From Eledone cirrhosa (lineage: Eukaryota), in contig CAXHJY010000429.1 in NCBI GenBank assembly GCA_964016885.1, positions 1 to 64,000 of the forward strand: a stretch of DNA of 64,000 nucleotides. The letters run 5' to 3'. A program made the translations under genes and the position numbers. The notes beneath the pieces are model-generated. The model was not told where the DNA came from. It ran no database searches and was given only the letters and a program-made list of their open reading frames with translations. Shown here piece by piece: positions 29,769 through 64,000 of the stretch (its first letter is position 1; each line of letters starts with the position of its first letter).

Positions 29769-29832
29769 ATGAGGAGACATGTTGGATTAACTTTATGGCT
29801 TGGTGGTGTCTTTCTGCTCTTCTTAAAACCAG
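29769..29832 (+). CDS. Exon 1 coding part: signal peptide [21 protein letters not shown]
   Basis: Acceptor ttgcag ends at 29745 (implies an upstream 5'UTR exon), ATG at 29769, basic then hydrophobic stretch, donor CCAG|gtgact, phase 1. Confidence 0.7.

Positions 29833-64000: not shown

Follow-up and report, generated by a model that had tools for sequence, protein, structure and literature searches.

The window analysed here, 64,000 nucleotides at the start of contig C456 (86.6 kb) in the 3.0-Gb genome of Eledone cirrhosa, raises the question of whether small exons scattered among repeats encode one membrane receptor and, if so, to which kind of cadherin this receptor belongs. The original prediction had proposed a 17-exon cadherin-mucin receptor built like vertebrate CDHR5 and gave only positions 29769 and 61099. 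We rebuilt the exon set from the sequence and the count agreed (17). In this splice, all 16 introns were GT-AG with compatible phases, and the 1,456-aa translation contained no stops. Exons 1-11 were colinear with O. sinensis XP_036368702.1 (141/330 identical) and with O. vulgaris CAI9740380.1 (127/303 identical). The GT-AG introns, the matching phases and the colinear Octopus proteins bear out the claim that 17 small exons join in frame, and on these sequence features the chain is very probably real. The features are as follows, in window coordinates unless a contig position is given.

29769..29832, + strand: exon 1, coding part, with the ATG and most of the likely signal peptide; the start aligns with the Octopus orthologs
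32483..32545, + strand: exon 2, end of the signal peptide and EC1 strand A with Cys27; splice model and Octopus alignment
33038..33171, + strand: exon 3, EC1 core with a DxE motif; tblastn 44% to P0002 and Octopus alignment
36872..36910, + strand: exon 4 (39 nt), EC1 strand F with Cys98; Cys kept in 3 aligned Octopus sequences
38139..38228, + strand: exon 5, EC1-2 linker with a DxNE-type calcium motif; splice model and profile
39383..39487, + strand: exon 6, first half of EC2 with DxD; splice model and homology
40805..40927, + strand: exon 7, EC2 with LDYE; Pfam PF00028 (E 5e-4, below cutoff) and EC profile
44300..44455, + strand: exon 8, end of EC2 and the PCDH15-type EC2-3 linker (NxDDxGP); splice model and linker comparison
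45278..45359, + strand: exon 9, EC3 with the PIxAxD motif; splice model, homology and motif count
45545..45657, + strand: exon 10, EC3 core; splice model, homology and EC profile
46002..46067, + strand: exon 11, end of EC3; splice model and Octopus alignment
47028..47114, + strand: exon 12, Thr-rich stalk cassette, phase 0-0; splice-site scan
52918..53010, + strand: exon 13, 31-aa Ser/Thr stalk repeat, copy 1; splice-site scan and O. bimaculoides repeat
54852..54944, + strand: exon 14, stalk repeat copy 2, with no difference from copy 1; splice-site scan
56342..56434, + strand: exon 15, stalk repeat copy 3, with a single synonymous change; splice-site scan
57936..58001, + strand: exon 16, stalk cassette, phase 0-0; splice-site scan
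61099..61143, + strand: exon 17a, membrane-proximal, 45 nt, ending at an internal donor (TCG/GTAGAT); donor score and O. bimaculoides junction
61144..64000 and continuing past the window, + strand: exon 17, read-through part, transmembrane (TM) helix A and long cytoplasmic tail; ORF and conservation
about 61162-61218, + strand: TM helix A; hydropathy of the translation
62134..62157, + strand: RPPSVPPR in the long tail; identical in 3/3 species
62668..62679, + strand: Y(M/I)NM in the long tail; conserved in the Octopus alignment
62971..63030, + strand: conserved, likely helical block of the long tail; 19/20 residues identical in three species
contig 68778-69788 (G000:C456 68778-69788; L006:7878-8888), past the window, + strand: exon 18, phase-0 acceptor, its own TM helix (B) and a ~305-aa acidic tail ending IRL; acceptor score and homology

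The AG and pyrimidine tract that lie 20 nt ahead of the coding part of exon 1 suggest a further, unlocated 5' UTR exon upstream. The 17-exon product runs from a hydrophobic N-terminus through a cadherin ectodomain of ~320 residues (exons 2-11), a stalk and a TM helix to a low-complexity tail. The N-terminus was not flagged as a signal peptide by the hydropathy threshold used on the spliced model; we infer one from homology. As predicted, this model has a single TM helix after the stalk (residues 511-529).

The protein belongs to the cadherin superfamily, having tandem EC repeats with calcium-binding linker motifs. A profile of 300 EC repeats of unrelated cadherins, searched against the spliced model, found EC2 (E 4.5e-12) and EC3 (E 1.9e-7). 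EC1 is strongly diverged in sequence; with the same profile it reached E 0.08, the best full-sequence E of 20 shuffles being 0.055, and because this score is not above the shuffles the EC1 call rests on fold evidence and on a match to Pfam FAT4_N in the ortholog's EC1 (E 1.3e-4, under cutoff). A three-EC fold was predicted by AlphaFold for the O. sinensis ortholog at pLDDT 78.9, from an alignment in which 21 of 27 rows were non-orthologous, mostly protocadherin-like cadherin stretches from the window's genome; on 7 alignment rows the pLDDT was 31. The three EC domains of the original prediction are recovered in this way, EC2 and EC3 by profile and EC1 by fold. Its proposed check with PF00028 gave a divided answer, since the cutoff was passed in the orthologs but the window reached only E 5e-4, in exon 7 alone. 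No EC-like exon was found between exons 11 and 18 by a scan that recovered 4 of 10 known ectodomain exons as a control, and in the predicted O. bimaculoides isoforms EC3 is followed directly by the stalk, with no fourth EC.

The stalk comprises residues 346-503 (158 aa), with three 31-aa repeats; a Ser+Thr content of 46% over this stretch agrees with the S/T stalk that had been proposed. Exons 12-17a are all in phase 0-0, and the splice-site scan, trained on the gene's own introns, placed the five stalk exons within its top six matches. Exons 13-15 differ by at most one synonymous change and their flanks are duplicated too (296/306 identical in the block flanking exons 13 and 14); by their sequence, these exons are recent copies. 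The 31-aa repeat resembles the stalk repeat of O. bimaculoides, with a score reached by 4 of 1000 shuffles. Across the predicted isoforms of that species the stalk varies from 100 to 247 aa through loss of cassettes, the blocks dropped being of 25-30 residues or sums thereof.

Repeats and mobile elements were also recorded in the window. The duplicated stalk exons are interspersed with several fragments of a single repeat family (47260-47760, 53690-53830 and 55250-56160), which may have helped the duplications. Intron 3 carries a 93-bp tandem repeat (35575-36315, 8 copies, 97% match), whose unit length happens to equal that of the stalk exons. A LINE-type element lies in intron 7 (41289-44117, − strand); its two open stretches carry endonuclease, reverse transcriptase and a PHD-like segment. 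A GIY-YIG fragment (6813-7962, − strand, E 5e-5) has an adjoining ORF, and a fragment in intron 16 (58622-59131, − strand) resembles it, with no Pfam match; we take both to be Penelope-like. A 34-bp minisatellite occupies 21980-23682 (50 copies, 95% match).

The ORF that begins at 61099 extends past the window to 1,412 codons in all, with its TGA at contig 65335-65337, and exon 18 sits 3.4 kb past this stop. With splice matrices trained on the gene's own 16 introns, the donor 45 nt into exon 17 (61143) outscored every other phase-0 GT of the ORF (72 in all) and ranked in the top 0.9% of 2,171 GTs; 61099-61143 scored best among the unlisted exons, and the acceptor of exon 18 fell in the top 0.7% of 2,164 AGs. 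All 12 RefSeq isoforms of O. bimaculoides (LOC106871506, predicted) join the homologous short peptide to an exon-18-type TM helix. The O. bimaculoides model A0A0L8HCL0 runs from this short peptide into Val (a GTN codon) and then TM helix A, and Val stands at the switch point in all three species. The long ORF has no stop in 1,397 codons, as against 60-130 in the other five frames, and an AATAAA lies at contig 65391, 54 nt past its stop (chance ~6%). The sequence offers candidate parts of a composite terminal exon: an internal donor, the exon 18 acceptor, a conserved ORF and an AATAAA. DNA contigs of two runs from one sample showed no differences to the covered pieces of the exon 17 read-through. 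Three runs over exon 17 and the next intron were DNA-like, with contiguous upstream intron, very deep repeats and no donor joint, and so have no bearing on splicing.

The long end was 48% identical to O. bimaculoides (591/1225) and 55% to O. vulgaris (350/642), in patchy similarity that reaches the last residues; identity to Octopus was below this for both the ectodomain (42-44%) and the short tail (40%). Between Octopus species, identity was 87% for the long end and 68% for the short tail (both bimaculoides-vulgaris), and 62-64% for the ectodomain (sinensis-bimaculoides). Since the long end is better conserved than the ectodomain, two receptors are likely, with predicted products of 840 aa and 1,901 aa and a common ectodomain. 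We consider it quite likely, from these splice-site and conservation data, that the gene makes two alternative ends. The huge tail of the original prediction holds up as an open and conserved ORF, but the gene likely has a second end as well, and it is this second one that the 12 O. bimaculoides isoforms carry. As no RefSeq isoform of that species has the long end, the long form may be rare or restricted.

The long tail (~1,370 aa) is mostly basic and Pro/Ser-rich. We take its RPPSVPPR to be SH3-ligand-like and its Y(M/I)NM to be SH2-ligand-like. An in-frame 24-bp coding repeat in this tail (window 62775-62911, ~5.7 copies) is largely missing from two Octopus sequences. The short tail (~305 aa) is acidic, with a net charge of -50. 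It has four conserved islands in its acidic background: PVTMTF..L...VSFADD, DGLSYV.HI, EEMTW.VA and NEI.Y.PL.DD; the VSFAD may loosely resemble phosphatase-docking motifs. The short form ends in IRL/ARL, a possible class II PDZ-type motif by its sequence. E. cirrhosa lacks the NPxY-like motif seen in the short tail of Octopus. No Pfam family scored above cutoff in either tail, and neither end had a close paralog among the candidates scored. The idea that the two ends are duplicates of each other was not supported, their score being reached by 28 of 100 shuffles.

The original prediction had called this gene hidden; this does not hold, as misnamed or fragmented Octopus models already exist. The orthologs are O. 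bimaculoides LOC106871504 and LOC106871506 (X1-X12) and A0A0L8HCL0, XP_036368702.1 and CAI9740380.1, at 40-55% identity by region. Their names (mucin-5AC-like, serine-rich adhesin, fat-like) come from low-complexity similarity and, unlike the gene in the window, they are split, truncated or fused into two-TM chains. No retrieved Octopus model has the full ectodomain with either single end, and two alternative ends would account for the split or fused public models of the locus. Word-based protein searches found family members only in Octopus, among targets of 531-1693, 30-714 and 321-1024 aa, length ranges too short for a full long form of about 1,700-1,900 aa; the one match with a non-Octopus name was an unrelated multi-EC fragment. 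In a representative-library search, large multi-EC cadherins made up 147 of the 150 matches listed, so that this search carries no information on distant orthologs. The literature searched, which left most subscription papers outside, gave no description of the gene or of a cephalopod CDHR5-like protein, and the preprint 10.1101/2022.01.23.477425 did not mention the gene by the terms tried. Overall, we regard the locus as a genuine octopod gene that the databases misannotate; it is a cadherin-mucin of likely Cr-3 type, and its switch between two anchors by splicing is probable.

Two other readings of the 3' end were weighed. The gene might have a single end, either the long 17-exon form or the short form, the other being a relic or a separate gene. 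The RefSeq isoforms carry the short end only, and an in-frame ATG lies in the pyrimidine tract upstream of 61099, as this reading would have it; however, both ends are open and conserved in three species and continue the reading frame of one and the same 45-nt exon, and past its acceptor exon 18 has neither a start nor a signal peptide to itself, which makes a single end improbable. The database models might instead be correct, with part of the long ORF spliced to exon 18 in one two-TM protein, since CAI9740380.1 and A0A0L8HCL0 both make such a join and a fair in-frame donor at 63180 (4th of 72) lies two residues from the O. vulgaris join. Yet the donors of these models differ, some ~630 residues apart, O. 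bimaculoides has Gly and not Val at the O. vulgaris join, and the O. vulgaris model lacks exon 5 and the stalk and is therefore unreliable. Basic residues follow both TM helices and conflict with the opposite orientations of a two-TM chain; they mark both as N-out helices, fitting alternative type I ends. With differing joins and such flanks pointing to alternative ends, we regard the two-TM chain as a very improbable product of the gene. A switch between two ends is the reading we retain.

As to the tip, CDHR5 and PCDH15 belong to the Cr-3 subfamily and have an EC1 disulfide that joins strands A and F (C5-C73 in CDHR5; PMC8691648). The window's EC1 has Cys27 and Cys98 (O. sinensis Cys29/Cys101), conserved in Octopus, with a spacing of 71 vs 68 in CDHR5. 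The N-terminal and strand-F cysteines that the original prediction had likened to CDHR5 are indeed placed as C5 and C73 are there; in sequence they fit the Cr-3 pattern, and the disulfide is putative. The PCDH15 EC2-3 linker has DGDDL in place of DXNDN (PMC7547225). The corresponding linker is DxDDL in O. bimaculoides and NxDDT or NxDDK in the other octopod sequences; among 2,923 linkers from 148 other cadherins, 99 had the DD form and 6 had DDxGP. By sequence, this linker is of the PCDH15 type (DxDDx). The PIxAxD motif of EC3, which we take to occur in CDHR5 and PCDH15, is present in 3 of 4 species, with 12 matches elsewhere against 3,491 AxDxD motifs.

Fold comparisons were made with the model of the O. 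sinensis ortholog. In Foldseek, PCDH15 EC1-3 took ranks 1, 2 and 6, in a near-tie with CDH23 EC22-24 (E 4.2e-21 vs 1.3e-21 for the best match), and VIA, with Z-scores that are likewise tied, gave CDH23 EC22-24 the top Z (18.4 vs 17.9). CDHR5 EC1-2 (6oae) stood at row 28 of 50, with model residues 26-223 matching chain residues 2-205 in register from the chain's N-terminus (Z 14.7, rmsd 2.9, 184 aligned). With the O. sinensis ectodomain as query, the first two of 10 rows in the ESM Atlas were CDHR5 clusters (TM 0.68, 0.70 vs 0.55-0.60), and a Cad99C-like cluster came first in a tight feature ranking. For EC1 alone, CDHR5 was listed first at TM 0.60, with other rows reaching 0.61-0.64. PDB sequence searches did not have CDHR5 among the 60 rows listed and had PCDH15 first at rows 30, 40 and 18; the EC2-3 linker region alone gave no PDB match. 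A PF18432 search for a separate PCDH15 in the genome had no match, its controls being equally silent, and no PCDH15-specific family was seen in the nine large matches scanned. The predicted CDHR5-like tip is supported, as one of PCDH15/CDHR5 type, by the cysteines, the linker and the top fold ranks, some of them near-tied, but the sequence searches favour neither CDHR5 nor PCDH15. Taken together, a tip of Cr-3-type (PCDH15/CDHR5) origin appears likely.

Against such an origin, the tip could come from another cadherin (CDH23, CELSR, Fat or a protocadherin), in a protein that is mainly an anti-adhesive mucin or a signalling receptor. The PDB sequence matches were led by CELSR1, PCDH10 and clustered protocadherins, EC1 features fitted protocadherin-type Cadherin_2 clusters in the ESM Atlas at 0.89-0.91, and the divergence of EC1 leaves room for this. 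These sequence ranks, however, are scores summed over many repeats, the Cys pair and the rare linker fit Cr-3, and PCDH15 came first in Foldseek despite the mostly protocadherin-like rows of the alignment; another source of the tip is rather unlikely. Within Cr-3, the gene could be a true CDHR5 ortholog, in which case the few-EC and mucin design would predate the protostome-deuterostome split and the protein would form intermicrovillar links with a CDHR2/CDH23-like partner. Both ESM Atlas searches list CDHR5 first, EC1-2 is compact (198 model residues vs 204 in CDHR5 and 234 in PCDH15), and the stalk repeats of 30-31 aa are alternatively spliced like those of human CDHR5, whose four 31-aa repeats are reported only for the long isoform (PMC10916864; 10.1101/2023.02.22.529570). 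CDHR5 is also described as fast-evolving, with 38% mean EC1-3 identity over five vertebrates (PMC8691648), so that orthologs would escape word-based searches. On the other side, the octopod protein has three ECs and not four, its tails are unlike the CDHR5 tail, members were found in Octopus only, CDHR5 has 0 occurrences in the accessible part of an echinoderm cadherin survey, and mucin repeats are easily gained by duplication, three copies here being recent. PCDH15 is reported across bilaterians, though lost in oyster (PMC10734073), which makes a protostome PCDH15-like ancestor available. Independent truncation from a PCDH15-like gene is ranked above CDHR5 orthology: we give truncation slightly better than an even chance, and orthology is unlikely.

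Compared with known systems, the protein shares with CDHR5 the few ECs and an EC1 Cys pair of similar spacing (PMC8691648, PMC10916864), a membrane-proximal Ser/Thr/Pro stalk with ~31-aa repeats varied by splicing, a single TM helix and, in the short form, a hydrophobic C-terminal residue. It differs in having 3 ECs where CDHR5 is described with four (PMC8691648), in a stalk assembled from separate cassette exons, and in two TM-plus-tail ends (~305 and ~1,370 aa) as opposed to one reported Gly/Pro-rich tail of 154 aa; the short tail is acidic and not Gly/Pro-rich, and the CDHR5 tail ends in a PDZ-binding motif. There is no significant preferential sequence similarity between the two. Because of the EC count and the tail type, we do not file the protein as CDHR5, and membership of CDHR5 proper, if read into the original prediction, falls. 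By analogy, it nevertheless likely works like CDHR5, as a Cr-3-type tip on a glycosylated spacer. CDHR5 itself binds CDHR2 at the tips of microvilli in a calcium-dependent manner. With PCDH15/Cad99C it shares the EC1 A-F cysteines, the DxDDx linker and the best Foldseek match to EC1-3, and PCDH15 is also reported with alternative cytoplasmic ends, CD1-CD3 (PMC7547225, PMC4119359).

The switch itself resembles the composite terminal exons of IgM and sFlt1, in which the exon, its 5' splice site being passed over, extends into the intron; such exons are reported to be common, and the cases described truncate receptors or remove the TM helix (PMC5928244). Here, in contrast, read-through would add a new TM helix and a tail that is four times as long as the spliced one and conserved between species. 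The putative switch is unusual in that read-through would not truncate the receptor but give it another TM helix and a tail both larger and better conserved. Alternative TM exons in LAMP2 and Dscam are parallels. Cephalopod protocadherins share EC repeats, the type I membrane form and the same genome (PMC6339937); they were mined there as four to seven EC repeats, and have single-ORF ectodomains of ~800 codons, 22-37% identical over matched stretches, as opposed to the 11-exon, three-EC ectodomain with mucin stalk found here. The gene is thus distinct from the expanded cephalopod protocadherins, as had been claimed. Elsewhere in the genome, cadherin ORFs of ~800 codons stand in dense arrays (G000:C2:238-253 Mb and 332-340 Mb; C7:1.7-8.6 Mb), which is consistent with the known octopod protocadherin clusters.

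We propose that use of the donor at 61143 would join exon 17a to exon 18 and give the 840-aa form with the acidic tail, and that skipping of this donor, with intronic polyadenylation or retention of the last intron, would give the 1,901-aa form with the mostly basic, Pro/Ser-rich tail. Skipping of phase 0-0 stalk exons would vary the reach of the tip. EC1-3 would bind calcium, close the A-F disulfide and adhere to another cadherin as PCDH15 and CDHR5 tips do, and the two tails may couple this adhesive bond to different scaffolds. The gene would have arisen from a PCDH15/Cad99C-like ancestor by loss of the later ECs, parallel to vertebrate CDHR5, and its product would serve apical membranes, microvilli for instance, as a link or spacer of adjustable length. 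Cad99C is reported to control microvillus length (PMC2171266), and a microvillar role, drawn by analogy, falls a little short of an even chance. The reading as a whole, an octopod type I cadherin-mucin with a PCDH15/CDHR5-type tip and a two-end splice switch that acts as an apical link or spacer, is moderately favoured.

Microvillar and stereociliary links (CDHR5/CDHR2, PCDH15/CDH23) are known mostly from vertebrates and flies. A CDHR5-style tip on a mucin stalk in a cephalopod would mean that this design was either reinvented or is ancient. Cephalopod epithelia and photoreceptors bear dense microvilli, for which the protein is a candidate spacer. It is a doubtful but consequential idea that the gene is a genuine octopod counterpart of CDHR5 in which a single 5' splice site decides whether the link ends in a compact acidic anchor or in a signalling scaffold of 1,400 residues with a membrane helix of its own. 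If this were true, the cadherin-mucin intermicrovillar link would be far older than vertebrates, and the animal would have structural and sensory versions of one link, for example in gut or skin and in photoreceptor or sucker.
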